Assembly (NCBI GenBank): GCA_000934665.2
Contig: JYFJ02001491.1
Location: 58,655-78,654, forward strand
Reading direction: 5' to 3'
DNA: 20,000 bases
DNA from: Catajapyx aquilonaris
Lineage: Eukaryota
Within the stretch, counting starts at the first letter, position 1. Each line of letters starts with the position of its first letter. Below, one piece after another: positions 1-20,000 of this stretch. A model generated the notes under the pieces. The model was not told where the DNA came from. It did not search any database and was given only the letters and a program-made list of their open reading frames with translations. The position numbers and the translations under genes are program-made.

Positions 1-334
1 TGTTAATGGGACAAACAACCAGCACAGTCTTGACGTTGAGATCCTCGTGTGTGAGAACAGTGTGGACCAAGGCTATCACCTGCAGCGTCTTGCCCAAGCC
101 CATGCAGTGTGCTAATATGCATCCTGAGCCAGGATGTTGTTCCTTTACCCGCTCCACTGATTCAAACAGAGCATCCCACATGAACTTGATGCCCTTCACT
201 TGGTGGGGCTTCAGCTTCTTCACCAAACTTGGCTCGACACTCACAATCGGCTCCTTTGTTTCTGTATCAAAGTCTAGTACAAATTCTTCCAAGGGCTTGC
301 TTTCATCGGTGGCTGTTTGGAAGATTTTGTTGTA
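1..334 (-). CDS. ATRX: ATRX/XNP coding exon, start of SNF2 helicase ATPase domain (runs off window edge)
   Basis: After acceptor ctcattAG (336-335) it translates YNKIFQ...[75 protein letters not shown]. This contains the ATRX-specific motif I ([15 protein letters not shown]) and motif Ia (VVCP). Phase 0. Confidence 0.97.
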
Positions 335-603
335 CTAATGAGAGAAAAAAGGAGCAGTTATTATACATATATGCCGTGAGTATAACTGTTATACAGGTGT
401 CATATATCCATACATCATCTATCTTCATCCGTGTATATGTTTTAAAATAATTTCAACAAAATAACATACCAAATGTTGACAATGGCTATCTCAACTTTTC
501 AACCGCTCTTAGTAAAGTCTCCACAATTATAAAACGTATTCCAGCTCAAAAATATTTTCTGGGACTTAACGATTTGTAGCATAAAACTGCAAAATAATCT
601 CAC

Positions 604-729
604 CTCTTTCTGCCGATCCTCAATCCTTTTTCGTCGATCCTCCTCCTCTTTGGCTGCTGAACGAGTTTGTGACTTAAGAGCTGTGTCTTTTATAATTTTT
701 TTGATGTTCTTCCTCCCTTTTCCTGGAGA
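604..729 (-). CDS. ATRX: ATRX coding exon (basic/coiled segment preceding the ATPase)
   Basis: SPGKGRKNIKKIIKDTALKSQTRSAAKEEEDRRKRIEDRQKE resembles the ATRX KGRK.I.KI..D...EEERRKRI block. Donor GAG|GTGAGA at 603, acceptor tctcAG at 730, phase 0/0. Confidence 0.9.
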
Positions 730-788
730 CTGAGATTTGAAAACTGTAAGCATCAGCTTTGCAGCCGTGTAAACCACAGTTATTATAC

Positions 789-876
789 CTTTGAGGAGTC
801 CACAATTTGGACATCACTTGAGTTGGGACTGGAGTCACCACTGCTGGCCACCCTTATTCTCCGCCGACGTTTATTT
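789..876 (-). CDS. ATRX: ATRX coding exon (NKRRRRIRVASSGDSSPNSSDVQIVDSSK)
   Basis: Acceptor ttgcAG at 877, donor AAG|GTATAA at 788. Flanked by 59-nt introns; phase 2/0 fits its neighbours. Confidence 0.8.
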
Positions 877-935
877 CTGCAATGAAATTCAGGCATTAAA
901 GCAAGGCTTAACTGCGGATGTGTAACATGCCATAC

Positions 936-1070
936 TTGGAACTTTTCCCAATGTCTTCTGAACTGCTCGATGCTTTCTTTTTATCGGAATCGGAGCTGCT
1001 TGAGCTTGGACTGGTAATTGCCTTCACACTCGAGTCTGATGAAGCAATGCGAATGCGTTTCTTGCGTGGC
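936..1070 (-). CDS. ATRX: ATRX coding exon (PRKKRIRIASSDSS...SSSEDIGKSS)
   Basis: Acceptor ttgcAG at 1071, donor AA|GTATGG at 935, phase 2/2. Ser/Lys-rich linker composition. Confidence 0.8.
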
Positions 1071-1212
1071 CTGCAAGGCAAATGCATGATTGAGATAATC
1101 AAGTGCTGCTGTCCCTGACAGTTTGGTATCTGAGTACGCATGATTTAACCTCTGGTGCCGCACAGCAGCCTCTTTTCTATGAAATTCCATAATAATAAAC
1201 AGCTCAACTCAC

Positions 1213-1376
1213 GATACTGAAGGCTTAGCATCATCACTATCGCTGGAACCCAATTTGACAGGCTGTCTGCGACTCATGGCTTTCTGTACCCTACTTTCTT
1301 CTTCACTGCTGTCGGTCTCACTCAGTTTTTCCTTGAGGAGCTTGTGCGTCTTAACGCGTGTCTGCATTCTGGGTTC
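1213..1376 (-). CDS. ATRX: ATRX coding exon (EPRMQTRVKTHKLLKEKLSETDSSEEE...)
   Basis: Acceptor cttgcAG at 1377, donor TC|GTGAGT at 1212, phase 0/2. HKLLKEKL resembles the ATRX HRLLRHKL-type linker block (recalled). Confidence 0.75.
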
Positions 1377-1433
1377 CTGCAAGATTTACAATACAGCATT
1401 ACCATGCCACTGCATTCAGTTGCAAAATATTAC

Positions 1434-1561
1434 TTCATCGAATTCTTCGTCAGATTTCTTCTTCTCCTCTTCTTCCTCCACCTTACGCTTCTTTGCCTTT
1501 GGTTCCTCTGAGGTCTTCCTTGACCTCCTTTTACCAGTCACTTTGACGCTGCCCTCAGAAT
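1434..1561 (-). CDS. ATRX: ATRX coding exon (DSEGSVKVTGKRRSRKTSEEPKAKKRKVEEEEKKKSDEEFDE)
   Basis: Acceptor tttacAG at 1562, donor GAA|GTAATA at 1433 (57-nt intron), phase 1/0. Contains NLS-like KAKKRK. Confidence 0.8.
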
Positions 1562-1800
1562 CTGTAAACATGACAGAAGTCATTTAGGCCAGTTCGAATA
1601 TAAAATGTGTGCAGGTGATGAGATTATCCTTGAAATTATCCTTGCAGAATTTCAAACAGTGACGGTAAGTTTACAATCATGCCACAGTGTACGATTGTGC
1701 AAGCTAGGCAGGTCAGCCTAACGGTTTAAAATCGGCCAAACTGCAATGGCAGATTAAATTATGGTATTGAGAAAAAGTGTAAATAATTATGTGACTAATG

Positions 1801-1908
1801 GAGTACGTTGCTAAAATCAGCCACTGCCGCAGTGAAACCAAAGAGTAACAATAAAATAAAAATAAGGAATATTCTTATTTTACTGTTACTCTTTTTAGCA
1901 ACGTACTC
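1801..1908. mobile_element. Small fold-back element / MITE remnant
   Basis: Perfect 16-bp terminal inverted repeat GAGTACGTTGCTAAAA / TTTTAGCAACGTACTC plus an inner inverted repeat (aaagagtaaca / tgttactcttt). ATG flanks both sides. Confidence 0.55.
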
Positions 1909-2627
1909 ATGGTATGACAACTTTGTTGGCAAGAACTTTGAATTTGACACTAAATAGCAAAGCAGTCAGCAAAGCTACTCATGCAGCTCGATAAATTCAC
2001 GTCAGCGTGACACACAAAGCCATGATAATTACCCACATGTCATTATTATTGAATGCACCTAGTGCAGTATTTGCACTAGTAAAATCAGCCTGCCTTATTA
2101 TATCAAATGACATTCTAAGGATTGTGGTGAAGAACTTGTTTAAAAATTTGTGAAATTAAGCTCACAAAATACCAAATTTACAGTAAAAGTGTATCCTTGC
2201 TTCCTGCCACAGCCACGCCCTTGTAGGCTTCAACAAGAAGTTTAAAACATGGTGAAGAGCCAGCTGTGCAGGTGAACAGGTCAGTGTTGTGTAACAATTA
2301 TTTCATTCATGAAACACACATGCACTGAAATTACACAACGTCCAGCTGTTGCCAGTAACTGCCATAAATGAAACGTTCATAATGCAATAATATGCTATAA
2401 AGCTTTTAATATATTTGCTTTATTTTTACAGGTATTTATAAGCAAGCAAGATGTGGTCATAAAAAGTAGCTCACCAACGACTGGCACTAAAGGTATGCAT
2501 AAGAGACAAAGCAATAGTTTGGTCTTGGCAAAGATATGCAATGTAATTTGTCACACTCAATGGAAACCTTTTCAGCAACAAAATTTTTTCACTGATTCGG
2601 TTGCAGACACAATGGAAAATGGCTTAC

Positions 2628-2729
2628 CAGAATTCGATGAAGCCAGCAAATTTTCTTTGGCTACTTGATTGGGATCCTCCGATGCGCCTTTAATTTTCAG
2701 TTGTTCATTATTCTTCACTTCAGCTTCAT
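2628..2729 (-). CDS. ATRX: ATRX coding exon (DEAEVKNNEQLKIKGASEDPNQVAKENLLASSNS)
   Basis: Acceptor cattgtAG at 2730, strong donor CTG|GTAAGC at 2627. 102 nt, phase 1/1, bridging the 5100 and 1561 junctions. Confidence 0.8.
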
Positions 2730-3513
2730 CTACAATGACATAAATTGTTACTCATACTGTATCAGTTTAGGCAAGTCACATTCATGGAATACCACCAAAT
2801 ACTTATTGGTTGATTTTTTTAAAAATTATCACAGTTCTCCCTAACATCTTTTTCAAAAATCTGGTACCTCACTTGGCACCCGAATTGCACCAACTGCTAT
2901 TGCACATATTAAATGTCATATGATACATGATAATCAAATACCTTATTCGAGCTCTCTAACTGGTACCAATACATCTTGATGTCAATGCACGAGTAAAAAA
3001 AATATAAACTGCATAAGCTTAAAATAAACAAATATTTACAAAATTCAGTGGAAAGGACAAGTTTGCATTATTCTTACGATATGTTGGTGGACAAAATAAT
3101 GGCCTTGTCCTCCTACGAAAAACGAGAAATCGGTGGGCAGGACAAACAGCAAGAAATACCCTCATCCTCCCAGTGTGAGTCCACCTCTTGTGCAAGGACA
3201 AATCCATTGTTACTTCCAACAATGCCATTCAAAATATTTCTAAACAAAAATATGTCTTGCCACCCTGGAATTATTGAATGTAATCCAGGGCAGTAACAAG
3301 AAACAACTTCCTTTGCCTAGTGGTTTTGAAGTCAGAAGGAATCTCATTGTTGCTTAATGACCTCTGAGTAACCCTTTTTGGACTGTCGTGTGTCTCATAA
3401 TTGCTACCTGCCCATGACCTTGAAGATAAAGGGTGAGGAAAGGGGCCTATTTTTGGTTGGGAAACTCGAAATCTGACTCATGTGATTCGTAGGTGCCTGG
3501 TAGGTGCCTTTTA

Positions 3514-4650
3514 GGGCCGATTTCTCGAACAGTGGTTCAAGTCAGTTTGAACTGGGTTTGCGTCTACACGCTGGATGGAGTTTAAACTCCCCTTCCGAGT
3601 GTGTGTATTTCTCGAGCGTAAACATACCCTCGGTTACTATGTGAACGACAAGACTCGGTTAGAATTACGCCGTTGCCACATGTCGCGTCGTCCCCATTTT
3701 CCCGACCCGGTCAGAGCTTCAGCGCGAGTCTTTACCGGCTTGTAAACAAACTCTAGTCAGCAAGTCTCGAAGGCGGAGTGAGGGACATCGCATTTGAAAG
3801 TGACATTTTTTGACTAGTTGCCGACGTTACGCCGTAAAATGATTTTTTATGGCACTTTTTGGAGGCCAAAAAATTCACGCTGTGGACCCTGGATAGTGCA
3901 AATCTTTGTCTTTCTAATGATATTTTTGAAACTCGGAAATCGCCATTTGCGTAATCATAATTACGTTAATTGCACACCTCTGTTATCTCGGCCGTTTATA
4001 TTCCGAATTACTTCGCGAATGTACCGACGGAAAGCCAGAAATGTGCGCGATAAAATTACATAGTGCTACACTAAGAATTTTAAACGTATTTAAAAGTATC
4101 GCCGTCTATTCCCGCCAGAAATCGGGCTGAGTACTTGTCTATTAAACTTACTAAAACAATACTTTTGAAAATTTTAGTGTAATAGAGCACAATGTAATTT
4201 TATCACGCACATTTCTGGCTTGCCGTCGAAACATTCGCGAAGTAATTCGGACGAGAAACGGCCGAGATAACTGAGGTGTGCAATTAACGTAATTATGATT
4301 ACACATAGTTGCGATTTCTAAGTTTCAAGCATATCATTAGAAAGACAAAGATTTGCACTATCTGTGGTTCACAGGGGGAATTTTTTGGCCTCCGAAAAGT
4401 GCCATAAAAAATCATTTTGCGGTGCAACGTCGGCAACTAGTCAAAAAATGACACCTTTCATTGTTGTTCCCGGCATTCCAAACCCAGTTTATTTCAGATA
4501 ACGGCCGGCAATCGGGCCGTCAGATGTGAACCGAGTTTAAACCGTATCCATGGTTTGTTTTTGCCTCGAGAAATGGAAATTTCTCTGAACTGGGTTCAAA
4601 CCGGACTTGAACCTTGTTTACATTTGAACCATTGTTCGAGAAATCGGCCC
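3514..4650. mobile_element. Non-autonomous PIF/Harbinger-like DNA transposon in an ATRX intron
   Basis: 27-bp TIR GGGCCGATTTCTCGAACA(G/A)TGGTTCAA with 1 mismatch. TTA target-site duplication at 3511-3513 and 4651-4653. No transposase ORF. Confidence 0.85.
3795..4460. repeat. Long imperfect inverted repeat (arms ~3795-4098 and ~4148-4460) inside the Harbinger-like element
   Basis: Matching blocks include ttttttgactagttgccgacgtt / aacgtcggcaactagtcaaaaaa, gatagtgcaaatctttgtctttctaatgatat / atatcattagaaagacaaagatttgcactatc and taatcataattacgttaattgcacacctc / gaggtgtgcaattaacgtaattatgatta. Confidence 0.95.
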
Positions 4651-4861
4651 TTAGTTCATCAGTCCAGTTTTAAAATGTCGGGGAAGAGGAAGGGGTTGAC
4701 ACAGGTTCAGCATATTGCCCGAGTCTGGGCTGAAGGCCCAATGGAGCAGGCGAAATTATGATTTTGCACCCTATTGAGATAAGGTGCTTATTTTTGCTCC
4801 CCCCATTATCCTCTCTTTCTTGAGGGCAAAAAAAAATAAATAGTAACGTCCTTGATCTGGT

Positions 4862-4935
4862 TATAGCTGAAACCTGTCCATTACGGAAAAATTTTGGGGT
4901 CCCATGCGATTCCGCTATACACAGGTTTCACTGTA
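4862..4935. mobile_element. Tc1/mariner(pogo)-type MITE remnant
   Basis: Ends in caggtttcactgTA (reverse complement TAcagtgaaacctg), with a partial inverted copy tgaaacctgt near 4868. Confidence 0.4.
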
Positions 4936-5099
4936 TTATAATTATGCATAGCCTTACATGACTCAAAAACTTATGTGCAACAGTATTTGTGCAATTCTGG
5001 TGCCAATTAAAGTAGCTACATTTCTGAAATGAACAGTTCACTCACATGCAGTACTTTGCAGCAAAATTGTAAATAGGATTTAAAAGCTCTTGTACAAAC

Positions 5100-6895
5100 C
5101 TGATTCCTCCAAGTCTGAGCTGCTGTTAAAATAGATCTTACTCTTCCTTTTCTTATTGGTCGCATTACCATCCTTCTTAGACTTGGATTTCTTTTCTTTC
5201 TTCTTCTGTTTTATTGATTTCAGATTTTCCAGCCTGCTGATTTCTGTATCTGTATCAGCACCAGAGGTGTTGCCAACTTTTGTTCTCTGTTGCTTAGCAG
5301 GAGTTGCATCAAATAGTTTTACATAGCCATCCACTTCCAGCTGCTCTACTTTAGATGGTGATATCGGTGAGAGTTTCACTTTACATGGACGGATAGCAGG
5401 TTCAGAATCAGTGCTGTCAGCATTCTCATTATCAGCAGCATTGTCACTTGCACTGGATGAAGTTTGGTAGTTTTTAATCTTAGCAGCACCCTTGGACTTC
5501 GAGCAGTCAGAAGCATTCTTCTTTTGCTTGCTGTTGTCATCCCTACTGCGACGAGACATACGTTTTTTACGCCTATGCAATGGTGAGTAGTCAGTGTCAC
5601 CTTCATCACTGCTCTCCAGCAACGCCTTTCTAGCCTCTTCGTTCTCATTCTTAAATGCTTTGGTTTCCAAATCAGATTTTGTGTTTACTTCCTCATCGGT
5701 CTCCGGCTTTCCGTCACCTTCTTTGGCCTTTGATGGGCTCTCAATATCACTGGTCTTTGAAGGGCTCTCAATATCACTGGCCTTTGAAGGGCTCTCAACA
5801 TCATTGGCTTCTTCCATGCCAGAATCATTATATGGAATTGCAGGGGAGGCCAATGCCGTTGATGCATGACTGTCCACTTCCATCTTCTCATCATCTAGCA
5901 TTTTCTGCTCACTGCCTGACTGTTCTGATTCTGGTTCACTGTTATTAGCGCAGGGACTTGGACATTCATCATCGCTGGTTGGAGACTCAAATTTGTCTGT
6001 GACTGGAGGGGATAGTGGGCTTGGAGCATGGTCATTTTCAAGAGCCTCAACCTTAATCTTGGATGTATCCGTACTACTGCAAGTTTCCCTGTCAACAGTT
6101 GAATTCCTTACATCTTTAGGTGAGGATCTACCTTCTCTAATGCTGGTGCATGGATCTCTGTCGGTTGGGTCTTTGACATCAGGCACAGGTGTGTCCATTG
6201 CATCACTGGTGCTCGGAACCGGATCCATGCTATCTGGCACGCATCTGAGGTTTCTTTTCACTAATGGAGTGGACGTCATGACCGGGTTGCCCACACTGGG
6301 ATTGTTCTCATTATACTCATCCTCATTCTCCGCACCAACCTCACTATCATCAACGTCTATTGATGCAAGTTGTTTAGTCTTTTTCTTCCTCTCCGTTTTC
6401 TTCCTGTTTTCATCCTCATTCTCTGAATCAACCTCACCATCATCAACTTTTATTGATGCACGTTGTTTAGTCTTTTTCTTCACAACAGCTTTCTTGGTTT
6501 TGGTTCCATGAGAACCTAACCACAGCAAATTCTGGTCATGTTTCCGCAGCATGTCCATCTTATTCTTGATAACCTTCCTTAATTCAGACACTGGGTCATT
6601 TCCACTCAATGCCAACAATGCCTCCTTTTTCATGTCACTTCCAATCTCCCTAATGCTTTCAGCTATCGACTGGGGTGTCCCCTTTTCCGCTTGGCTCTTG
6701 TACAGTTCAAGTGCAGCCCAGCACACAGCTCTCAGACTCCACACAGACTGAGTATCACAAGCAAAGCATATCCACTCTAATTCGCTCTCAATATCACAAA
6801 GAACCTTCCGGCCTAAGTTGGTGCGCACACACTTCTTGCAAAAGACATTGCTGCAGGCACTACAGCAAATCATATTTCCACCCTGGGCACACCAC
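5100..6895 (-). CDS. ATRX: ATRX large exon: PHD-like half of the ADD domain plus long disordered linker
   Basis: WCAQGGNMICCSACSNVFCKKCVRTNLGRKVLCDIESELEWICFAC is the ADD PHD finger (human CRWCAEGGNLICCDFCHNAFCKKCILRNLGRKE, recalled). Acceptor ttgtAG at 6896, donor CAG|GTTTGT at 5099, phase 2/1. Confidence 0.95.
5725..5805 (-). repeat. 3 x 27-bp coding tandem repeat (unit ~ D-[IV]-E-S-P-S-K-[AT]-S)
   Basis: Units ggcctttgatgggctctcaatatcact, ggtctttgaagggctctcaatatcact and ggcctttgaagggctctcaacatcatt. Confidence 0.9.
6317..6481 (-). repeat. Coding tandem duplication with 93-bp period (KKKTKQ.ASI.VDD.EV..ENEDE x2)
   Basis: 6317-6388 and 6410-6481 align with few mismatches. Confidence 0.9.
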
Positions 6896-7398
6896 CTACA
6901 ATACAAATAATGAAAATTACTGTTCTACTCTGCAGACCTGCATCAAAAGTTTAATCTATCAGATGGACACACTCTTGGTGGGAGCTTATTATTAGCCAAT
7001 AAACCTGTGCCATAAACTTCAAGATATGTCTGGCTGAGAAACATTCCTTTCCACATTTGAAGGCACTTCATTAAGAGAGCAAGTTTTCTTATTATTCAGC
7101 CTTTTTGAAACATGAAATTGTAACAAAATATAAGTGCATAAGTGCTAGAAATACCCTCATATGGTAGATAATAATTCACATATATCTTTCTAGTGTAATG
7201 GTATTCCAATTTGCACAAAATATTAGTGGTGAGAAGAGAACAGTATCTCCTGCAAAACTAGGGAACCTACATGCTGGACGAGGGGACACAGACCTTCACT
7301 CTGAAAACACTTACACAATTGAAACATTATGTACACGAGTGAATTCAACTAGTACATCATTTGCCAATGAGGCAATTAAAAATATCATAAAGCTTCAC

Positions 7399-7579
7399 CT
7401 GCAATACTTTTCCCAGTCATCATCATCCTTAGGAAACATGCCATTCCCATAGAACTTGGAGCACCTGCAGCACACCAGCACCTGGAGGGTCGGATGGATT
7501 CGAACGGCCTTCATGTTGGGATTCATGTAACACCGGCAGGCAGTGCACACCAGACGCATATTTTCTATATCAGTCACAT
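7399..7579 (-). CDS. ATRX: ATRX coding exon: GATA-like half of the ADD domain
   Basis: LVCTACRCYMNPNMKAVRIHPTLQVLVCCRCSKFYGNGMFPKDDDDWEKYCR carries the CTAC...HP.LQVL.C..C signature. Donor AG|GTGAAG at 7398. Acceptor gaAG at 7580 (an alternative in-phase tatAG lies 15 nt downstream). Confidence 0.93.
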
Positions 7580-7693
7580 CTTCAGTTAGCCAAAAGAAGG
7601 GGGAAGGAAGCATTAGATATACACATCCCATAGAACACAGTGTCAGAATATGCAACAAAATCAGTTATGAAGTGTATGGATAAAGCTAATTAC

Positions 7694-8436
7694 CAGGAAA
7701 CATATCCAAGTGGTGAGCTAATTCTTCATCACATGAGGGCACAAATGTTAGGAGAACATGTTCCTCAGGATTTGGTGAGGAGTCAGAGAATGATCCAGAC
7801 TCCGAATACTCATGCTCGCCGTTATCCAAGGTTTTGGAGCACGAGGGTTTATTTTCCTTGCCATTGCTTCCAATGTATGACAACTTGACTGACACTGAAT
7901 GACTTAAGTTTGGATTCACTTCAGTATTGCTTTTCTCAGGCATGGCAGGGCCGGTTGATTCAGTAATCGTCTCCTTCTTCAAATTTGAATCCACACTGAC
8001 ATCAGGTATAGAATCTTTTGATGAATTTACACCTACTGGTGAATTTTGCTGTGGTGATTGCTCAATTTCTTCTTCTAATTCAGGCACATCATCTGACTGT
8101 GATAATGGTTTTTCTCCAACCGAGTGCCAAGTTTCTCGCGATTTATCACTTACAGGTGATGAATCACAAGACAATTGGCAATGCATGTCTGGAACTGTTC
8201 CATCTCCAGCATTGGATTTGTCCAGGGTAGATTTATCTGCGCAGTCCACCTTTTCTTCCTTCACAATTGATTGCTCCTTGTGAAAGCTGCCAGCACCTGA
8301 ATTGACAGGTGACATTATGGTTTCTTCTAAGCTATTATCGTCAGACACGTCTCCTTCCCTCTTTCTCATATTGCACCCAGAATCCCATGGGCAGTTTGGA
8401 AGACTAGTCTTACTGCTTGGAGCTTCAGAATGACAT
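7694..8436 (-). CDS. ATRX: ATRX N-terminal acidic/Ser-rich coding exon
   Basis: Open for 743 nt (includes ORF 7686-8369). Acceptor atttccAG at 8437; donor CTG|GTAATT at 7693 is in phase with the ADD exon. The start codon may be in this exon (ATG at 8369) or upstream. Confidence 0.85.
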
Positions 8437-8656
8437 CTGGAAATAAATGTTTAAGACACCTTTTAGAGCCAGCTGCGTCACTGCAGGTGCATAACTGCAT
8501 GTGGGTAATGGCAGGTTCAACCATGCTAATAATTGTTTGAGAAGAATGACAGCTACATTTCATGCACCTAAAGAATTTTGCACCACAGGGAAACGAATTG
8601 CGCTTACACTCACATCTGTGGATATTTCATTCACACTTAAGAGTCACATTCAATAC

Positions 8657-9130: not shown

Positions 9131-9570
9131 AAGTGGGCTTTACACAGTTGTTCCTACTCCGACTTCGACTGTATTCGAACATTGAACCTACTGTGTAAAT
9201 GGCATTCCGTGTCGGAGCCAGGGAGGCCAGCTCAGGTCACCTGGGCAGATAGGAGACGAGAGAATGGGCGGGGCAAAACGTCGGATTGACTGTGCGAATG
9301 ACTGTCCGACTCATCCCGCCTCTCTGATTGGTTAGTGAGGTCTTCTAATCGACCTCGTTGCCCCCACACCACCTTCACCTCCACCTTTTTATTAGTAAAC
9401 AAACTATGCCCCCACACTCCACCCTCCTCCACAAAAATGTGTCCCTCCACCTTCGAACATGGAACATTGGACACCGGACATCGAACAGCAGACCTCTGTC
9501 TGAACAGGGTGTCCAATGCCTCCGAGTCAGAGGTGGAGTCGGAGTCGGATCGAATGTGTAGAGCCTACTT
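9131..9570. mobile_element. Non-autonomous DNA transposon (MITE) flanked by TA
   Basis: TIR AAGTGGGCTTTACACA / TGTGTAGAGCCTACTT (2 mismatches), extending into ctccgact / agtcggag. TA at 9129-9130 and 9571-9572. GC-richer interior. Confidence 0.7.
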
Positions 9571-9849
9571 TAGACTTGAATATTCCACTTGTATACAAAA
9601 TTGCAGCCCCATAGGACGTTTTGACCTTGGTATGTCAGCATAACGCACTATTCCAACCACCCGCACATTTGCCCCAATCAAAGCAGGCTGACGATGGGAT
9701 TAGTCATACACTGATTACAGTCTACATTTTTAATATGCACTGTGCAACAGAATTTGCCTGTACACTCACCCATTTTCATTGCAACATTATTTTAGAACGG
9801 TACCGGTACCAGAAGCATTCAATTTTTTTTGGCAAGGATCAAAATTACG

Positions 9850-10024
9850 GACATCTACCTCGATGATTGCGGCATGCCAGCCACCCCCGGGTTATACCGA
9901 CATGCTGGTCGACCTCGTTTTATACCGGCATGCCGCTTTATGTGAGGTAATACGGCATCCATGTTTGCCGATTATCAGGCGACACCGGTGCAGTCATTAG
10001 CCCGGATAATCTGGAGTACAGTGT
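9850..10024. mobile_element. Degenerate Tc1/pogo-type MITE remnant
   Basis: Right end ccggataatctggagtacagtgTA resembles the common CAGT...CGATTATCCGG TIR class, with internal copies of cgattatc/ttataccg. Left end is decayed. Confidence 0.35.
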
Positions 10025-11294: not shown

Positions 11295-11796
11295 CCCTCA
11301 GACGGTGACGTGCGAAATGTTCGCTCTCCGGTGACGTGGGCACTTTTTGTGACCAAGCCATATTTTTTGTTATATCTGGCAAAATATAGCACTTTCAGGC
11401 ATCACCTTTGAGACAATCATAGAGTGATTCCTTCTACGCCAAATAGCGTTTAGTTTACATTTTTTGAGAAAATAGTGCGACCAGAAAAAAAATCTGAAAG
11501 AAAATCAGTCGGGGCCAACTCCCGGGGGTAGGGGGATTCCACCCCTTGGCGGCCTGGGATGCCACCGGGAGCCGCCAGACCGAATCTTGGTCAGGCCCCA
11601 ACTACGCATTGCCGCCTAATTTATTTTTTCCTGGTCGTGCTATTTTCTCAAAAAATTTAAACTTAACGTCATTCATCACAGAAATAGTCAAACGAAAATG
11701 TTCTCAAAGATGAATCTCGAATGTCCTAAATTTGCCAAGTTATAGCAAAAAAAGGGGTCGTTGGTCACAAAAAGTGCCTACGTCACCGTCGAAAGG
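11295..11796. mobile_element. piggyBac-like non-autonomous element (MITE)
   Basis: TTAA on both sides (11291-11294, 11797-11800). TIR CCCTCAGACGGTGACGT vs reverse-complemented CCTTTCGACGGTGACGT. ~165-bp subterminal inverted repeats (gcactttttgtgaccaa / ttggtcacaaaaagtgc; ttgagaaaatag / ctattttctcaa) surround a GC-rich core. Confidence 0.85.
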
Positions 11797-11928
11797 TTAA
11801 ATGCACGTTCAATATATTAAAATATCACAGCATTAGCCTAGCCAGCATGGCACAACTCTGAACATAATATGACCAATTAAAAACCAATTAAGAGGTGTTG
11901 CTCTCGTATGATAAGCTGTTAGCTATTA

Positions 11929-12089
11929 CAGTTGAATCGTGATATAACATGCTTCAAGAGACCCCGGAAATCAGTATGTTATAACCAATGTCTGTTATAG
12001 CCAAATACACAGGCCATATATGGAAGTATGGCGGGAGCAGCCTTTCGAGTCTGTTGTAACCGAAAGTCTGTTATATCAGGATTCAACTG
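11929..12089. mobile_element. Tc1/mariner(pogo)-type MITE, 161 bp
   Basis: 20-bp TIR CAGTTGAATCGTGATATAAC / GTTATATCAGGATTCAACTG (1 mismatch). TA TSD at 11927-11928 and 12090-12091. Internal tgttata repeats. Confidence 0.85.
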
Positions 12090-12411
12090 TATCTGGGTGA
12101 TTCACACAGAACCACACCCTTTCAATTTCCTCGCAGGAATAAGCGCACCCTGAACAATTGGTTCAAAAGTTGAGGTGAACTTCGGAGCAACGCTGTCAGT
12201 GGTGCTAAAAAGGCCATCACCCCCTGTATACATTGTAACGTTCAATGTGCTTGGATCTCAAATAATTAAGGCACGAAGCAAGCAGTCAGCTTGCTCAATT
12301 AGCAATTAGCAATAGTCTGGCCACACAAGCAGCTGCTAATTAATTCCAACCAAAAATCGAACACCAAGACGTTCCATTCCAATTATTTTTTTCCCCCTTT
12401 CGAACACTGAC

Positions 12412-12600
12412 CAGTCTACGGTGCGACTGCGACCGGCGATCCCACCGTCTAGAGGCCAACCCAGGCAGCCGCCTTCCCCGGGCGCCCCAAGAGCCGACTC
12501 GGAAGAAGCGCAACGGATTACCGGAGAGAACAATGCAGCCCGCCGTGGAATCGTAATCAACTAACGGGCAGCCATTTTAACTCCAGCAGTTACTGGGAAA
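12412..12600 (-). promoter_or_regulatory. Probable ATRX first (5'UTR) exon and core promoter
   Basis: CpG-rich island. YY1/Pho-type AAAATGGC motif (12578-12571) and donor CTG|GTCAGT at 12411 point toward ATRX. E2F-like gcgcg motifs lie upstream (~12825-12860). TSS position is inferred. Confidence 0.55.
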
Positions 12601-12926
12601 GGAGGGAAGCTGGAAATTGACTTTATTTAAAAAAAAATTAGGAACAGCCACCGTTTACTTAGATCAAGTGCTGTAAGCCTTTACTATTTTAAGTAGAGCA
12701 ATTAGCGAATTAAAAGTTACGTTAAATTTTGCTTTAAATAGGGATTTGACAGGTGGCAAAATTCCCCGCTAGATGTTGGTCTAGCAGAGGAGCTTTTGAC
12801 TTTCGCCGGGAGATGGCGGAGCTGGCGCGATTTCTGAATATTTATTATTTTGCGCGCGATTTTGATTCCTCGTTTATTCGTCTTAATGTGACATTTTCAT
12901 AGGAGATTTGTACCAACCATGTACCT

Positions 12927-13208
12927 TTAGTGGGGGCTTAACGTCGGCCTATTTCTGCCGCTAGGCTCAACACCGACGCCAGGGGGATGATCTATCTCCT
13001 GGAAATTTGGCCACTCTGGGGATCTTTAACGTGCACTCGCGCAATGTCACAAGCCCACGGGACCGACGGGTTTACTTCCCCTCCGAAGGAAGGCGCACTC
13101 TCACTGTTCTACCACCCGGAGAAAAGTCACCGACCTCGGCCGGGTTCGAACCCACAACTTTGGGACCAGAGGCGAGCGCGCTAACCACTATAGTCCACCG
13201 GCGCCGGC
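12927..13208 (-). mobile_element. Full-length tRNA-derived SINE with Deu/Nin-like central domain
   Basis: Minus strand shows A-box TGGACTATAGTGG, B-box GGTTCGAACCC and central CCTTCGGAGGGGAAGTAAACCCGTCGGTCCC...GCACGTTAAAGATCCC. Perfect 15-bp TSD ACCAACCATGTACCT at 12912-12926 and 13209-13223. Confidence 0.9.
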
Positions 13209-13448
13209 ACCAACCATGTACCTATGAGGCGCATAAATAGAGGATAATGTGACTAGCTGAGAGTCATTATCCTGTTACGTACTTCAATATAATTATATAT
13301 AGGTACTGCCGTTGCCGTTTCGTAAGGAAACACTTCAACGATTAAAAACCCCCCAATTATTGTACAGTATGAACAGACATTCGCAACCTCTATCCCGCTT
13401 CTACTCGCATGCACTCGAACACATATGTCTAAATTATATACATACTTT

Positions 13449-13850
13449 CGGTGGAGTGGATATGGTGTCCGACTGCTGATCGGGAGGTCCTGGGTTCGAG
13501 TCCCGGAGGCCGGCGGTCCTGACCTTGGTTTTCTGTGGTTTTCCAAGGTCGCTCCAGGAAAAATTTCCGGGATCGAACCTTAAAATAGGCCACAGCCGCT
13601 TCCTTCCCCTTCCCTTCCCCGGAGGAGGTGCGGTGTCAGTGGAGAGTTTCTGACCCGCATCTTGGGGGTCATCTTGGCGAACGGGCCCTCTGAGGGACTG
13701 CACACGACCCTCAAGTTGAAGATATTGCACATGCACCAGTGTCCCCCCCTCTTCATCCCTACCCTGTCCCCTGCACAATGGTGGTAGCCCACTCCCCTAA
13801 GAGAGCCCATGGCTCTAGCACGGGGTACAATAAATAAATAAATAAATAAA
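13449..13850 (+). mobile_element. tRNA-derived SINE with Lm1-like central domain and (TAAA)n tail
   Basis: A-box remnant GGTGGAGTGG, B-box GGTTCGAGTCC, body ggttttctgtggttttcc...ccgggat...ggccacagccgcttccttccc and a (TAAA)5 tail. Imperfect TSD atatacatactttc / atgtacacactttc. Confidence 0.85.
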
Positions 13851-14655
13851 ATATGTACACACTTTCCGACCACGTTTTTCTAACTGCTCATAATTCCCTC
13901 CCTATTATGCAAACGTCCATGGAACTCGGCAGTGTTTGTATTAGATGATCAAACACCTGGTTTCATTCTTCCCGGCACTGTCTTAATTGAAGTTCTCGAC
14001 CCACCCCCGGGTTGTGATTGTGAAATGTGAGTGGGTTGCCTGAAGAAGGGAGTAGTCTGGCCCGTACAGTATAGTCCCAACACCTGACCCGGAGAGAAGC
14101 CAGAGAAAGATATTTTATAGGAATTCTTTCAATGATTCATGTAACGGTATAGGCTACTGACCATATAAGTCCCAGAGGTACAGTCCTTCACTATCAATCA
14201 CTTCAGCTGCACGATGGCGACACAACACTGCTCAGCAAGATGGATAAACCTAAGTCAGATAACTTTTTAGAAAACACTATACTCTCATCATCACTTTATC
14301 TGCAGCGTTGCTTAGTAGCCTAATGTAAATGATCATTTCATCTCCACAGGCCAAGTCGAACTGCTTTCAAGGGAATGGGGGTGGTCCGTGACTATAGGAT
14401 ATATAGGAACTGACAAAATTATTGTAATATTGTAAGAAATTCACATCAGGCATTCAGACTACACACAGAGAAATGGCCTTTCCAAGGTGGTCGCTATGCT
14501 GTGGCCTGACATGCAATACGTCTCAGTGATAATAATAATTTACGAGGTGTGGCAGAGGATGCAGATGCTCATATTTTGGGATTTTCAGTGTCTATACGAC
14601 TTCCTCAATTTTACTACATTGCAAAAGCAGGCTCCTACTTAACATCTGGCCCAGA

Positions 14656-15636
14656 CCTATATAGGACTTATTTCAGGCGAAATGTGTTTTAGCATTTGCA
14701 GCTTGTGGCAAAACTACTGATATAGACATCAGTATAATATTATAGGTCTCAATTCTTATGCAGTTGTACCTTCATGCTATGAACCCGACTAATATGGCTA
14801 CAACAATATACAGCTATGATAACTTATACCCATTGGGAAATACCATGTTAACATCTAAAATATTACCGTATAAGTTTACACCAAGTTATTTCACGGGCAT
14901 ATTAGCTGTGCTGTCAAAGTAAAGAACAGCGTTACACTGCATCAAGCTCATTTAAGGTGCGATTAAGTGATTTTGTTCTGGCAGCTGCATTCACAAGAAT
15001 AATATTGTGATAATGAGTAAAACCTATAAGTAAGCGGCCAACTTGTAAGGCATCAGAATCGTTTTTCCATTGACACCACTAAGTAAGCGAAAAGCATTTG
15101 ACTGTTTATTTGAACGTTTCTTTTTATACGTCCGGTGCTTCCAGGGAAACGATCACTTCCACGAAGGACTCATTTCTCACGACTTGATGACTAAAGGCTA
15201 CCAGTGATGTGGGGAAACTGCTTTAAAAATAAGTGTTAAAAATTCAGCCGGGTATTTGAGTATTTTTCCGTAGTTTCCAGCAAAATGGCTATGGCTTCTA
15301 CCTGCTTAAAGAATATAAGCTTTGCAACTGGCAAGTGGAGAAACTCACAAAAAAGACATTTAGGGAAGTAAGCTGATACAGTAGTTTGCCTGCTTTTCAT
15401 TGCCCTCTTCGCCAAAGATGGACCTGGCCAGTGTAGCACAGCACCAGTGTATTCTATTTTGGGAGTCAGTGGGCATCTGCACCAACAGGCGCCAAAACAA
15501 AATAAGCCTTTACCGGAACGTAAACATTTGCTGAAGGCTTCTGCCTATATATTACCAGCAGTTGAAGAGGAAAACGTCAGAGTTGCGGTGCACCACTTGT
15601 TCTGCTGGGCTGCAGGGCTTCCTGCTTAATTCAGTT
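14656..15636 (+). promoter_or_regulatory. Candidate muscle-type upstream motifs for troponin I
   Basis: CArG box CCTATATAGG at 14656-14665, MEF2-like TTAAAAATAA at 15223-15232, several E-boxes and Inr-like TCAGTT at 15631-15636. These short motifs could be chance matches in AT-rich DNA. Confidence 0.3.
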
Positions 15637-15700
15637 TACATTGCGGAAGACACTGGTATTACATTTGGACAATTTCATCTAGAGTAAAGCTCCATCAGCA

Positions 15701-15723
15701 ATGTCGGACGAAGAAGAAGTCAG
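15701..15723 (+). CDS. wupA: Troponin I first coding exon (MSDEEEV-S)
   Basis: gcaATG TCG GAC GAA GAA GAA GTC AG|GTATGT. Acidic start comparable to arthropod TnI MADDE; strong donor. Confidence 0.8.
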
Positions 15724-15946
15724 GTATGTCACTGGACATTGTCGCACTATGCTTTAATGTGCTTAATTATTTAAAGAGCAACCTGCCACAAGCGGTTCTC
15801 GTATAAAGAATGATCAAATGAAATGTTTTGACTTGGTTTCGAATGTACTCAGTCATATAGTGTAATACAGTAAGTTTATTTCACTTAAGGTGAAAATGAC
15901 AATTTGCAATATTTGAATGATAATAAAATTTGTATTTGCTTTGTAG

Positions 15947-15977
15947 CACCGAAGAAGAGGAAAACGAGGAAATAACG
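15947..15977 (+). CDS. wupA: Troponin I micro-exon (STEEEENEEIT)
   Basis: tttgtAG| ... ACG|GTATGA. 31 nt, phase 2/0, purine-rich. Confidence 0.75.
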
Positions 15978-17667
15978 GTATGAATATGATTTTTTTTTCG
16001 TCATTGTATGCAAGTCATTATTTAGTCCGAATCCATTTCAGTTCCGATTATCCACATGTAATTTACTATTGTTAATAATAATTTTGGTGGTTCTCTTTAA
16101 ATCCTGATATAAAGTGTGAAAAAATTACACCATAACAGTAGCCTATACATTAATTTTTCCAAACTCTGCGATTTGTTCAGATATTTTTTATGGCAACTTG
16201 GATCTTTAGAGGTGTGTTTGTAATTTGCAAAAAGTTACGCTAATTTTGAAATCCACTGGTAATCCTTTTATCCAAGTCATATATACTGTACATATAAGGT
16301 ATAAGGTTACAGCGACTTTCCACAGATATTTGCACCGTCACTCTTTCCTGCAATTTCCTGTCATTCGCAAATGGACCAGTCAGAGTAGTAGGTATTTCTC
16401 CAATGAACCCTGCCATTCTGAGTTTAGGTCGACCATGCGACGACCATTCTTTAATTACTGAGGTCTGGCTGATGTTGAGTGACTTAAGACTTATACGTAA
16501 TGGGCAGCCACTGTGGTGGAATATATACTGTAATTCCGCTAGAGTGGCCACCGGGAAAATGTTCCAAATCGGAATTCCAGGAGGGATTACACTCTGGATT
16601 ACATGGCTGATAATAGGTGTAGGAAGCCTTTTATTCCTATGGCCGCTTTCAACTGGAAATTGGTTGCCGAATTTAAGCCACATCACGTAGGCGCACTTTG
16701 GCTCATGTAATCTATTTATTCAAATGCAACTCGGCCACTGTTATGTTATATTTGCTTTAAACTTATTTGAAACGACTGAAGTAGTATCTGGCTGTTTTTT
16801 TTGGATTGTCCTTTGTGTTTCCTCCTTTCTTCCAATAGACTCGAAGAGCAGACTTTTCACTCAGGGCATTTCTTCTTATTTTTTTGTCACTCGATACGCC
16901 CACTGGCTTTCCAACTGGTTCCGGCGCCATAGCGAACTGCCGGAAAAAATCATTCTAGCTTGCCTGAAATCCTATAATGCCAGCGTATCTCCTGAACAGG
17001 ATTTGTTACTGTCACTGTCATACCAAAAGGTCACACCAACTGGTCACATTCCTGCTGGAGGGTGCCCAACTTGCGTCAGATATTAATTGCCGACGACGTC
17101 TCAGGCAGTGCTTTTTGGTCCGAAAAGAGTTAAAGAGATAATAAAATGGACAGCGATAGTTTGAATCGACATATAATTTTCGTTTCTGCTTGTTGAGAAA
17201 GCATGTACAAGAGAACGTTAAAGTCTATTACCTGTCCAAGCCCTTCAAAAGCAGTGAGCGTAGTTTGGCCTCTTCCCCTTTAATTGGCTTCATAATTAGC
17301 AATTTTTGGCCTGAAGGACCACATTGATGACACTCGACATCCATAAGTAGGCTTTTCAAATATAATTAAACGTTTTTTTTGCCTATTGCTGCATTCCTAG
17401 GAGTGCGCCAATCCTGTGGAGAGGGGGGGGGGGATTNATCGTAATGTGTCCTTTGAAATCGGTGAATTTGTGACGTCACATGTTATGTCATGTTATTGTA
17501 GCCTTTTTCATATTTTCTCTCTCTGCAATGCGGGAAGAAAGTCCTTATTATCTTTGCTGGAAAATATTAGTACGTCATTTTAGCAAACTTTTAGGCAGAT
17601 ACGAGTTTTTGCATCCTAGATCTATACAGTGACATAATTAGTAATTCAACTTTTGTTTGCATTTCAG

Positions 17668-17685
17668 AGGAGGAGAGTGGAAGAG
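17668..17685 (+). CDS. wupA: Troponin I 18-nt micro-exon (RRRVEE)
   Basis: ttttgtttgcatttcAG|AGGAGGAGAGTGGAAGAG|GTATGT. Phase 0/0. Confidence 0.75.
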
Positions 17686-17884
17686 GTATGTAAAATCTGA
17701 AATATTAACATTAATATTCTGTAAATCGCAAATGCGGGGTTTCAGAAGTATCGGATTTTTAATATAGGTTATATGACTCCGCATTTGTGATGACATTTTT
17801 CTCTAGATGGATTATATACAAGGGGGCGATCTAATAAGTTACTTTCCGAAGAAAAAAAACTCTTACTGAAATATTGCACAATAG

Positions 17885-18013
17885 GAAAGAAGACGGAAGC
17901 ATGAGGAGATCGAAAGAAAGAAGAAGGAGGTGCGAAAGAGGCTGGAGGAAGCCTCTGCAGCAAAGAAAGGGAAGAAAGGTTTCATGACACCAGAAAGGAA
18001 GAAGAAACTTAGG
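17885..18013 (+). CDS. wupA: Troponin I exon ([43 protein letters not shown])
   Basis: Contains the invertebrate TnI signature [14 protein letters not shown]. Acceptor aatAG, donor AGG|GTGAGT. Confidence 0.97.
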
Positions 18014-18076
18014 GTGAGTTCGGACAAATTCCATATATGGAGAGAGTGCATCCTCTAGAGAGTTAATTCTTTGCAG

Positions 18077-18200
18077 CTTCTGCTGAGAAAAGCGGCAGCA
18101 GAGGAGTTGAAGAAGGAGCAGGAACGAAAGGCTGTCGAGAGAAGGAGGATTATAGCAGAGAGATGTGGAAATCCAAAGAATTTAGATGCCGCTACAGAGA
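18077..18200 (+). CDS. wupA: Troponin I exon (LLLRKAAAEELKKEQERKAVERRRIIAERCGNPKNLDAATE)
   Basis: Near-identical to insect TnI LLLRKKAAEELKKEQERKAAERRRIIEERCG (recalled). ttgcAG| and A|GTATGA, phase 0/1. Confidence 0.97.
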
Positions 18201-18580
18201 GTATGACAACTGTTATTTCTCACATAGCTTATTGTATAGAGCTAAATAATAATCAGCTCTGAAATAATTGTAACAAATACTGAGTCCAATCTCTTTTGCC
18301 ATATTATAATCTATTATCAGATTATTTTGCACACTAACCGAAAAAACTCATTTTTCTTCCCCCAGTATTGCCGAATTGTAATGTCAATTTTTTTTGGAGG
18401 TATGACTTTTCGTACTTTTTTAAATATTTTCATCACATACCGGTAACCTTTAATAGGTACACACAGCAAATGTTCCTACATTTAATTATTTGGATATTTA
18501 AGACACTGACAGTGAGTGTTATACATTCCACGTTTCATACTCTGCATGATCTTTACTTATATAACTTAAATTACATCCAG

Positions 18581-18681
18581 GTGATCTCCGCGAGTTTTGC
18601 AAACATATCCATCAGAGAATCACTGCTCTTGAGTCATCCAAATACGACTTGCAAGGACAAGTGAAAGAAAAGGATCAGGAG
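18581..18681 (+). CDS. wupA: Troponin I exon-6 equivalent (SDLREFCKHIHQRITALESSKYDLQGQVKEKDQE)
   Basis: L...C...H.RI..LE..KYDL...V..KD.E pattern. 101 nt, phase 1/0. ccAG| and GAG|GTTTGT. Confidence 0.93.
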
Positions 18682-18806
18682 GTTTGTATTTATTTTCTTT
18701 ATTCGTCATTAAAATGATTTTATTTTACTTAAGTGGTAGACCACAATGGCGCTTAGCAGGACTATTTTCTATGCCGGTACTTATAATGTGAGTTTCTTTA
18801 TGATAG

Positions 18807-18853
18807 ATTGATGAAATGAATAAAATAATACTGCGAGACCATCCTGGAAAATT
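18807..18853 (+). CDS. wupA: Troponin I exon-7 equivalent, divergent (IDEMNKIILRDHPGKF)
   Basis: gatAG| and TT|GTGAGC, phase 0/2. It is required to keep frame and ends in GKF like the canonical INDLNAQVNDLRGKF. Confidence 0.85.
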
Positions 18854-18936
18854 GTGAGCATCATAATAAATATGATACTTATGACGTTGACACATTCGAT
18901 TAGGGCAACATATCAATAGTTTTTTTGACATTTCAG

Positions 18937-19090
18937 TCCAAAGCCGCACCTGAATCCAACTCGATCAAAGTACCAAGTGTACGACGACAAGATAACTAAG
19001 CTGCAGAGGAAGGCGGCTGAATTCAACTTCAGAAGTCAGCTGAAGCAAGTAGGGAAGAAGAGAGAATTCAGCCTGGAGGAAGAGGACAAG
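18937..19090 (+). CDS. wupA: Troponin I exon (PKPHLNPTRSKYQVYDDKITKLQRKAAEFNFRSQLKQVGKKREFSLEEEDK)
   Basis: Contains the KLQ.KAAEFNFR.QLK signature. tttcAG| and AAG|GTGAGC, phase 2/0. Confidence 0.95.
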
Positions 19091-19209
19091 GTGAGCAAAT
19101 CGGCCTAAGCTTCCTTGCGTCACGTTCTGTACGGTAAATGACACATAATATTATTATGCACATGATGGTTTGATAAAAGTACTAATGCATTCTCCGATCA
19201 CATTTTCAG

Positions 19210-19275
19210 AAAAAGCCGGAGAAACCCGAATGGGCAAAAAAACAACCTAGCACCAAATCAAGAAGTGGTAAATAG
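19210..19275 (+). CDS. wupA: Troponin I terminal coding exon (KKPEKPEWAKKQPSTKSRSGK*)
   Basis: ttttcAG|. KP[DE]W motif of the invertebrate TnI C-terminus. TAG at 19273-19275 if unspliced; a possible internal donor lies at 19268. AATAAA at 19584. Confidence 0.85.
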   Translation, partial: KKPEKPEWAKKQPSTKSRSGK

Positions 19276-20000
19276 GTTACTTACAATGCGAACGAAAATA
19301 ATTCACACTCGAGCATATAGTCCACGTTGAGACCAAAAAAATATTTGTTCTTAAAATTCCCAGTATAATGTGGATATCACTTTTAACTTGATGACATACC
19401 TCACCACCTTGTATGTGAGTTTCAAAATAGATTACTGACTTGGTAAAAAAAATATGTTATATGCATACTGTACTAATAGACACACTAAACATAGCCATAC
19501 AATTAACACTGCAGTAATAGTTAAATAGTTTAGGACTTATGTATACAGTTTGAAACTAAATCTTTGTGTGATTTTGAAGACAGAATAAAGCAGTTCGCAA
19601 TAACACGAGTCTTACAATTATTCTTCCCTCAGAAACTCACTTGTCAGATGCAGCTTCAGCACTTCTGGTTATTTGAATCATATAACCATATTTAGAGCAA
19701 AAACCATGTAAGTGACATAGTCAGTTTTTAGACAATTTGAAAAATTAGAGGAAGATTTAGATTATATGTGATGACGCACACATAATAATTTTATAACTTA
19801 TAATGCTACTGTCAAATTCAAGCTTCAACTTGAATTTTCTCAGAACTCTCCTTTTGCATTTATACCTTGCCTTTGCACGGAGGTACCGGTATTCAATTAT
19901 ACTCTACCGTAATAAACTTCTCTATAAATTATGGATGCAGCAAAGATCAGTACTCTTTCATGTTTCAAGCCTCTGCAGGACGAATGAAGGTTAATCTACA

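Follow-up and report, generated by a model that had tools for sequence, protein, structure and literature searches.

Can the inhibitory part of troponin I (TnI) be rewritten in a protein that otherwise keeps the features of its family and, if so, is such a protein the animal's main TnI, an additional copy with an altered task, or a duplicate in decay? This question is raised by a locus in the 20,000-nucleotide stretch of DNA that we analysed (hereafter the window). The helix adjoining the inhibitory region of TnI docks into the N-lobe of TnC at high Ca2+. At low Ca2+ the inhibitory region itself holds TnI on actin, according to two publications (PMC12305882, PMC2674065); in the second of these, no part of TnI is described as more conserved across animals than the inhibitory peptide together with the switch segment next to it, and residues 96-116 of rabbit fast TnI, NQKLFDLRGKFKRPPLRRVRM, are quoted there as the most conserved region. 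It is this segment that departs from the family at the locus described below.

An intact TnI gene and its surroundings

The locus is an intact, intron-bearing and transcribed TnI gene of the pancrustacean (insect/crustacean) type. It occupies positions 15701-19275 of the forward (+) strand, a span of 3.6 kb, and its nine exons, sliced from the window and joined, amount to 693 nt, i.e. 230 codons followed by TAG, which matches the 230-residue protein assembled in the initial annotation. All eight introns are of the GT..AG form with pyrimidine-rich acceptors. Exon 1 (15701..15723) begins with the ATG at 15701, encodes MSDEEEV and two bases of a split codon, and ends at the donor GTATGT; it lies in a bin (15342-16008) that has read depth in the sequencing run X5, discussed below. 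Exon 2 (15947..15977; acceptor TTTGTAG, donor GTATGA) encodes the acidic stretch (S)TEEEENEEIT, whose ten residues are all insertions relative to a panel of 17 canonical TnIs and lack a counterpart there. Exon 3 (17668..17685) is an 18-nt micro-exon encoding RRRVEE, situated where other TnIs carry an optional KRRIEE, RKRLED or KKRLEE insert, and it aligned with the inserts of Macrosteles, Homalodisca, Bombus and the protein P0101. The long intron 2 that precedes it contains, at 17421-17437, a non-coding run of G followed by N, which marks a point of uncertainty in the assembly.

The 43 residues of exon 4 (17885..18013) comprise the N-terminal region and the start of the TnC-binding helix. Exon 5 (18077..18200), reading LLLRKAAAEELKKEQERKAVERRRIIAERCGNPKNLDAATE, contains helix H1, and both of its ends match genomic fragments such as P0156. 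Exon 6 (18581..18681), reading (S)DLREFCKHIHQRITALESSKYDLQGQVKEKDQE, encodes the TnT-binding coiled-coil helix and is the sole copy in the locus. Exon 7 (18807..18853), preceded by AG and followed by the donor GTGAGC, encodes IDEMNKIILRDHPGK and two bases of a split Phe; it takes in the end of helix H2 and the first part of the inhibitory peptide, and is divergent. Exon 8 (18937-19090) follows a TTTCAG acceptor, opening with the third base of the split Phe and then PKPHLNPTRSKYQVYDDKITKLQRKAAEFNFRSQLKQVGKKREFSLEEEDK. We divide it into a first part, 8a (18937..18997; PKPHLNPTRSKYQVYDDKIT), with the rewritten inhibitory peptide and switch segment, and a second part, 8b (18998..19090; KLQRKAAEFNFRSQLKQVGKKREFSLEEEDK), with the conserved C-terminal actin/tropomyosin-binding 'mobile domain' block. 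The peptide singled out in the initial annotation is the exact translation of exon 7 together with 8a. Exon 9 (19210..19275) encodes KKPEKPEWAKKQPSTKSRSGK before the TAG; this tail is basic, while several canonical isoforms have an acidic end (..EVEA).

When the exons were scanned singly, rather than as the spliced protein, against the Troponin profile PF00992 (curated cut-off 26.2 bits), exon 5 scored 35.7 bits (E=1.3e-8; profile positions 7-44 of 134) and exon 6 scored 27.7 bits (profile positions 48-80 of 134), placing both in the family. Intron positions are conserved in the two exons compared: exon 5 opens with LLLRK and stops short of the exon-6 residues, just like P0156, and exon 8 starts one codon before KP and ends with EEEDK(E), like the genomic loci L001, L002, L005 and L011. 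The junctions 18681/18807 and 18853/18937, which border exon 7, are based on the GT-AG rule, the reading frame and these homologous exon boundaries, and so derive from the sequence and not from reads.

Four DNA-type runs from a single sample contain the window. The fifth run, X5, comes from another study and year, its kind is not on record, and it contains 40% of the window's sequence words; we take it to contain RNA because it includes a spliced contig. This contig, at a depth of 19.9, departs from the genome exactly at 15977 and rejoins it at 17883, and the 16 letters in between equal the micro-exon at 17668-17685, whose final two letters cannot be told apart from those of the acceptor; it is the exon 2-3-4 splice, and it also covers exon 4. 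The depth of X5 is zero in the intron 2 bins at 16009-17342, and 3.8, 7.9 and 18.4 in the next three, which span 17343-19343. The run also contains an unspliced piece at 18349-18586 (depth 3.4), and differs from the window by a synonymous C>G change at 17953, at the third base of a codon of exon 4 (GCC -> GCG). The intact spliced frame proposed from the sequence has thus held up as an intact intron-bearing gene, with exons 2-3-4 spliced in an independent run; this is the only splice among the X5 joints listed, and the exon 6/7 and 7/8 junctions are not seen among them. Contigs of the DNA run X1, possibly the source of the assembly, cover 17220-18386 with two differences and 18493-19514 with none. 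The MEF2-type motif YTAWWWWTAR has four matches against 2.98 expected, a count reached by 67 of 200 shuffles.

The neighbour of the TnI gene is an ATRX-like chromatin remodeller gene on the minus strand (2-8450), with an ADD zinc-finger (PF17981) at 7395-7664 and the start of a SNF2 helicase domain (PF00176) at 2-334, the two linked by long acidic and serine-rich exons (open reading frames at 5080-6924 and 7686-8450). X5 contigs lie over 5282-6645 of this gene. High-copy repeats occupy 3336-4669, 9339-10005 and 11340-14007, where the summed contig depth of X1 reaches 4,600-44,700 against a background of ~23; the peak at 13341-14007 has a depth of 2,179 in X5 too. Loose ends of the repeats carry a tRNA-T-arm-like string, GGTTCGAATCC, which suggests a tRNA-derived SINE, though Rfam gave no match and ARAGORN no tRNA in the window that bears them.

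Retained blocks and a rewritten inhibitory and switch segment

To locate the divergence within the protein, we aligned it with the panel of 17 full-length canonical TnIs and counted how many of the panel-invariant columns it keeps. In exons 4 and 5 it keeps 55 of 61 (23/27 and 32/34, respectively) with no inserted residue, so that the N-terminal TnC-binding helix typical of arthropod TnIs is present. In 8b it keeps 19 of 22 with one inserted Gly, which likewise places there the arthropod C-terminal block KLQKKAAEFNFRNQLK..KKKEF. Exon 7 and 8a together retain only 12 of 26 (6/11 and 6/15) and contain five inserted residues. The difference is significant both for exons 4+5 versus 7+8a (Fisher p=2.5e-5) and for 8b versus 7+8a (p=0.006). 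It had been noted earlier that the flanks are conserved and the middle is rewritten, and this contrast lies far beyond chance. The changes at invariant columns are K>R, K>R, Q>H, A>K, K>A and A>V in exons 4 and 5, and K>R, N>S and K>R in 8b; mild replacements (four K>R, one N>S and one A>V) make up most of those in these conserved blocks.

Seen against canonical insect and pancrustacean TnIs of the Drosophila wupA type (P0157, P0264 from Folsomia, P0263 from Apis and P0222 from Macrosteles), the window protein shares the Pfam Troponin domain, a near-identical N-terminal helix, the block KLQ[KR]KAAEFNFR.QLK, the boundaries of exons 5 and 8, and a micro-exon of the optional type after the N-terminus. 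It differs from them in the 12/26 columns and five additional residues of the segment, in the acidic exon 2, the basic tail and the single exon 6, and in a branch ~24x longer in the tree described below.

Within the segment, exon 7 has one additional residue, and Pro takes the place of the invariant Arg in front of GKF. Four more residues lie between GKF and KLQ, so that, counted from KP up to KLQ, the window has 19 residues and relatives have 15. These one and four residues agree with the 'about 5' inserted residues of the initial annotation; one further Gly occurs in KQVGKK. The canonical motif that the annotation gave is indeed found, for example as GKFVKPTLKKVSKYENKFAKLQKKAAEFNFRNQLK in P0157, L014 and L015. 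GKF and the following K-P are retained and the basic L-K-K-V cluster is lost. As a result, the inhibitory peptide pattern [RP]GKF-x-[KR]P-x-L-[KR]-[KR]-[VI], which is of fixed length, is broken by the four added residues, with GKF and KP kept. The switch segment pattern SKY[ED][NS]KF[AT] before KLQKK is likewise broken, with 6 of 15 columns retained and ENKFA replaced by DDKIT; whether SKY itself survives varies with the alignment. In those of MAFFT and BLAST, one four-residue gap follows GKFPK and PTRSKYQVYDDKIT is paired with PTLKKVSKYENKFA; the earlier alignment, with two gaps, retains KPxL and SKY and puts one of the extra residues ahead of SKY and three behind it.

Prolines are added to the rewritten stretch, as had been claimed, and rise from one to four. 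For most of them the description as 'helix-breaking' was overstated: they belong to the inhibitory linker or to its immediate surroundings, and a review describes this linker as intrinsically disordered and flexible (PMC12305882). The claimed loss of basic charge is real in so far as the LKKV cluster is gone, but modest in extent: from two residues before GKF to KLQ[KR]K, the sum of K and R is 8, down from 10. More telling than the prolines are the altered length and the missing basic cluster.

Distribution of the variant and the number of TnI genes

An exhaustive HMMER search with exon 8 against 1.84 billion representatives gave 181 matches at E<=0.001, none better than 5e-9. Among 151 proteins (P0001 and the 150 matches listed of these 181), the segment from KP to KLQ is 15 residues long in all 141 complete cases, the other ten being cut at their start, and it follows the pattern KP[TASP]L[KR][KR][VI]SKY[ED][NS]KF[AT]. 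A word-indexed protein search with exon 5 returned 984 matches among 1237 candidates. The 120 matches listed of these include named TnIs from springtail, termite, cockroach, hemipteran, thrips, wasp, bee, moth and midge, together with marine-catalogue sequences; the window protein itself is not among these 120, the best identity for exon 5 being 89%. All 54 stretches reaching the inhibitory region among P0152-P0271, from TnIs both named and unnamed, are canonical, and their sources include Folsomia, hemipterans, thrips, Hymenoptera, Lepidoptera, Diptera and the marine catalogue.

We scanned metagenome contigs for six peptide patterns, half of which are specific to the variant, and obtained 489 pattern matches and 90 relatives. 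The best 80 of these 90 are all canonical, with at most 67% identity to exon 8 of the window. Thus, the variant has no counterpart among the 141 complete proteins, the 54 TnI stretches and the best 80 of 90 metagenome loci. A comparison of identical codons reached at best 11 of 15, and gave no close relative among the 80 metagenome loci.

Like patterns run over prokaryote genome assemblies retrieved five short contigs with 60-64% identity, which we took as contamination. These (L081-L085, 332-525 nt, each with an insect-type TnI exon) belong to assemblies of Solihabitans fulvus, Pseudophaeobacter profundi, Nocardioides antri, Nocardioides humilatus and Salinarimonas soli, and almost certainly represent arthropod contamination of bacterial assemblies; P0176 is likewise annotated as 'troponin, partial [Salinarimonas soli]'.

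Two further searches with exon 8, neither of which is evidence of absence, gave one passing candidate of nine for longer homologous proteins (P0001, canonical) and no candidate sharing three words for near homologues. A PDB sequence search with exon 8 gave chance matches only (E 0.38 and 2.1). In the literature we found no described TnI that matches the variant; the search found only a W-linked gene of the salmon louse and the 'troponin I-like' salivary proteins of ticks. Taken together, the variant is not a common lineage form.

The next question is whether the locus is an extra copy or the animal's only TnI. A tblastn search of the window with five canonical TnIs found one exon-6-like stretch and no TnI-like exons elsewhere in the window. 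Single TnI genes of the wupA type have several mutually exclusive versions of exon 6 and alternative 3' exons, and named insect TnI genes have many isoforms differing in exon 6 (e.g. X2-X7 of Zootermopsis, X1-X14 of Macrosteles). The window, by contrast, has one exon 6 and one terminal exon across 15701-20000, though a single exon 6 may be the usual state in a taxon whose TnI genes lie outside our sample. Among the database entries, all annotated isoforms of the Zootermopsis nevadensis 'troponin I-like' gene (P0202, P0239-P0243) end in ..NDLRGKL; therefore these models read into the intron after exon 7, and are without the inhibitory-peptide exon and everything beyond. In a tree computed without the columns of exon 6, which is variable among canonical isoforms, the position of the window sequence is not resolved and its end branch measures 0.64, against a median of 0.027 (~24x). 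Its amino-acid make-up also departs from that of the TnI family.

Insects, according to one review, have a single TnI gene (PMC13322953), and a second extends this to invertebrates generally (PMC12305882). Contrary to this statement for insects, TnI seems, from its sequences, to be duplicated in one cockroach insect group. This is because the 334-residue protein named troponin I of Periplaneta americana, P0153, consists of two tandem TnI copies run together, the first stopping after ..YENKFA and the second restarting at KKGFMTP, and because the metagenome loci with an FQKP signature fall into two types, L011 (LRGK and QKPTLKK) and L028/L033 (NNLPGK and QKPALKK). In common with the window, the second copies of this cockroach/termite type (P0153 copy 2, L028, L033) have Pro ahead of GKF; P0153 copy 2 further has EID where exon 7 begins, and EFSLEEEDK. 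Unlike the window, they keep the canonical QKP[TA]LKKVSKYENKFAKLQKK. We considered from the shared Pro, EID and EFSLEE whether the window gene is an orthologue of the cockroach second copy; the tree does not support this, the two Periplaneta copies pairing together (SH-aLRT 83) apart from the window.

A precedent for a lineage-specific extra gene in a crustacean is the W-chromosome-specific 'troponin I-like' gene of the Pacific salmon louse (PMC11228835). It has a similar span of ~3.6 kb, and its listed neighbours differ from the ATRX-like neighbour in the window, the two genes being compared here by description and not by sequence.

The published view of one TnI gene per species would favour the locus being the sole TnI of an unsampled, fast-evolving lineage, its segment fixed and co-adapted with actin, tropomyosin and TnC for the ordinary job; the intact, spliced gene and the lack of a close relative by synonymous sites among the 80 metagenome loci agree with this. 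We nonetheless regard it as unlikely. Such remodelling is not expected in a sole essential gene because the segment is invariant across very distant taxa, from springtails to flies, and probable marine crustaceans as well; the change of 14 of 26 invariant positions, with five insertions on top, would be exceptional. The absence of the alternative exon-6 copies used by single insect TnI genes and the branch of 24 times the median length also speak against it. From these sequence comparisons, the gene is probably a lineage-restricted paralogue and not the animal's main TnI gene.

Constraint on the retained parts and the predicted role of the protein

Synonymous differences (pS) between the window and all 45 mRNA-like loci are saturated, at ~0.55-1.1 across regions and mostly >0.7; therefore there is no close relative among these loci and no usable dN/dS, and we give pN and pS in its place, most pairs being saturated. 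For H1, the pN of the window against 25 canonical loci is 0.075, where equally distant canonical pairs have a median of 0.028 and a maximum of 0.066. For 8b the corresponding values are 0.071, 0.035 and 0.097, and for exon 7 with 8a they are 0.395, 0.085 and 0.186. The acceleration is thus slight across the gene and very strong in the regulatory segment. The flanks evolve ~2-2.7x faster than in canonical pairs, which is consistent with some general relaxation.

These values bear on the possibility of a decaying or functionless duplicate, still transcribed and as yet without a stop or frameshift, in which relaxation happens to be most visible in the middle of the gene. Every region is faster than in canonical pairs, the amino-acid make-up is off-family, there are indels in the functional core and unspliced RNA is present, as such a gene would have it. 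On the other hand, the 693-nt model is intact in its nine exons and eight GT-AG introns, the indels are all in frame, and the divergence is strongly non-uniform (55/61 versus 12/26, p=2.5e-5). Moreover, pN in H1 and 8b is only 0.07 at saturated pS, with mostly conservative changes; this points to selection that still acts on the assembly parts, and speaks against uniform decay. A decaying duplicate is accordingly a distinctly unlikely account of the locus. The initial annotation had proposed that selection maintains the parts needed for assembly, and the low pN of H1 (0.075) and of the C-terminal KAAEFNFR block (0.071), set against 0.395 in the segment, supports this part of its interpretation.

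Drosophila TnI is reported to have nuclear or cell-polarity functions in addition to its place in muscle. Recruitment of a TnI copy to a comparable non-muscle role (nuclear or in cell polarity), with the actin-inhibitory peptide dispensable, would suit the release of constraint exactly in the inhibitory and switch part, the new acidic N-terminus with the basic tail, and the non-muscle functions of wupA products reported in one paper (PMC8011728), but it is improbable, since the conserved parts are the TnC-, TnT- and actin-tropomyosin-binding ones and are most simply explained by life inside the troponin complex.

The reading that we prefer, with a probability of about one half, is that the gene is a divergent expressed paralogue whose product still assembles into troponin and has an altered strength of inhibition, Ca2+ sensitivity or preference among TnC isoforms. 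Helix H1, predicted to bind the C-lobe of TnC, the coiled-coil helix predicted to bind TnT, and the C-terminal KAAEFNFR..KKxEF block are the parts kept, and they would build this TnI into troponin and lay it on the thin filament. The ~36 residues that link them are rewritten and extended by five; they run from the end of H2 through the basic inhibitory peptide, which relatives have as GKF-x-KPTLKKV, into the switch segment (SKYENKFA). With assembly retained, the geometry of the inhibitory linker and the helix that docks into TnC would be altered. The consequence may be a changed Ca2+ sensitivity, strength of inhibition or TnC-isoform preference, suited to a particular muscle or stage.

The vertebrate TNNI1/2/3 genes and the teleost cardiac TnI paralogues offer a likeness to the paralogue reading, as duplicates specialised by muscle type; in teleosts, according to two reports, the contact between the TnI switch region and TnC varies (PMC4860682, PMC9825255). 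The vertebrate paralogues keep the inhibitory peptide (PMC2674065), whereas that of the window protein is itself altered. A bolder form of the preferred reading, which we offer as tentative and somewhat doubtful, is that the protein acts beside a canonical TnI as a second expressed, 'non-canonical inhibitor' TnI, in which the inhibitory peptide and the TnC-switch helix are redesigned and the assembly surfaces kept, with one TnC paralogue as its partner and a muscle-specific response to Ca2+ or stretch. If this is true, it would be unprecedented among described TnIs, with selection having remodelled the very peptide that is most conserved in the family.

Even if the gene were the sole TnI of its bearer, the 'invariant' peptide would prove replaceable, which would be of interest for structural models of the thin filament. 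An expressed TnI with its docking surfaces kept, its inhibitory linker longer and rich in proline, and its switch helix different would provide a natural experiment on which features of the segment are needed for inhibition and Ca2+ switching. If the gene is a paralogue, as we favour, it would mean that arthropod troponin has here diversified through gene duplication instead of alternative splicing.
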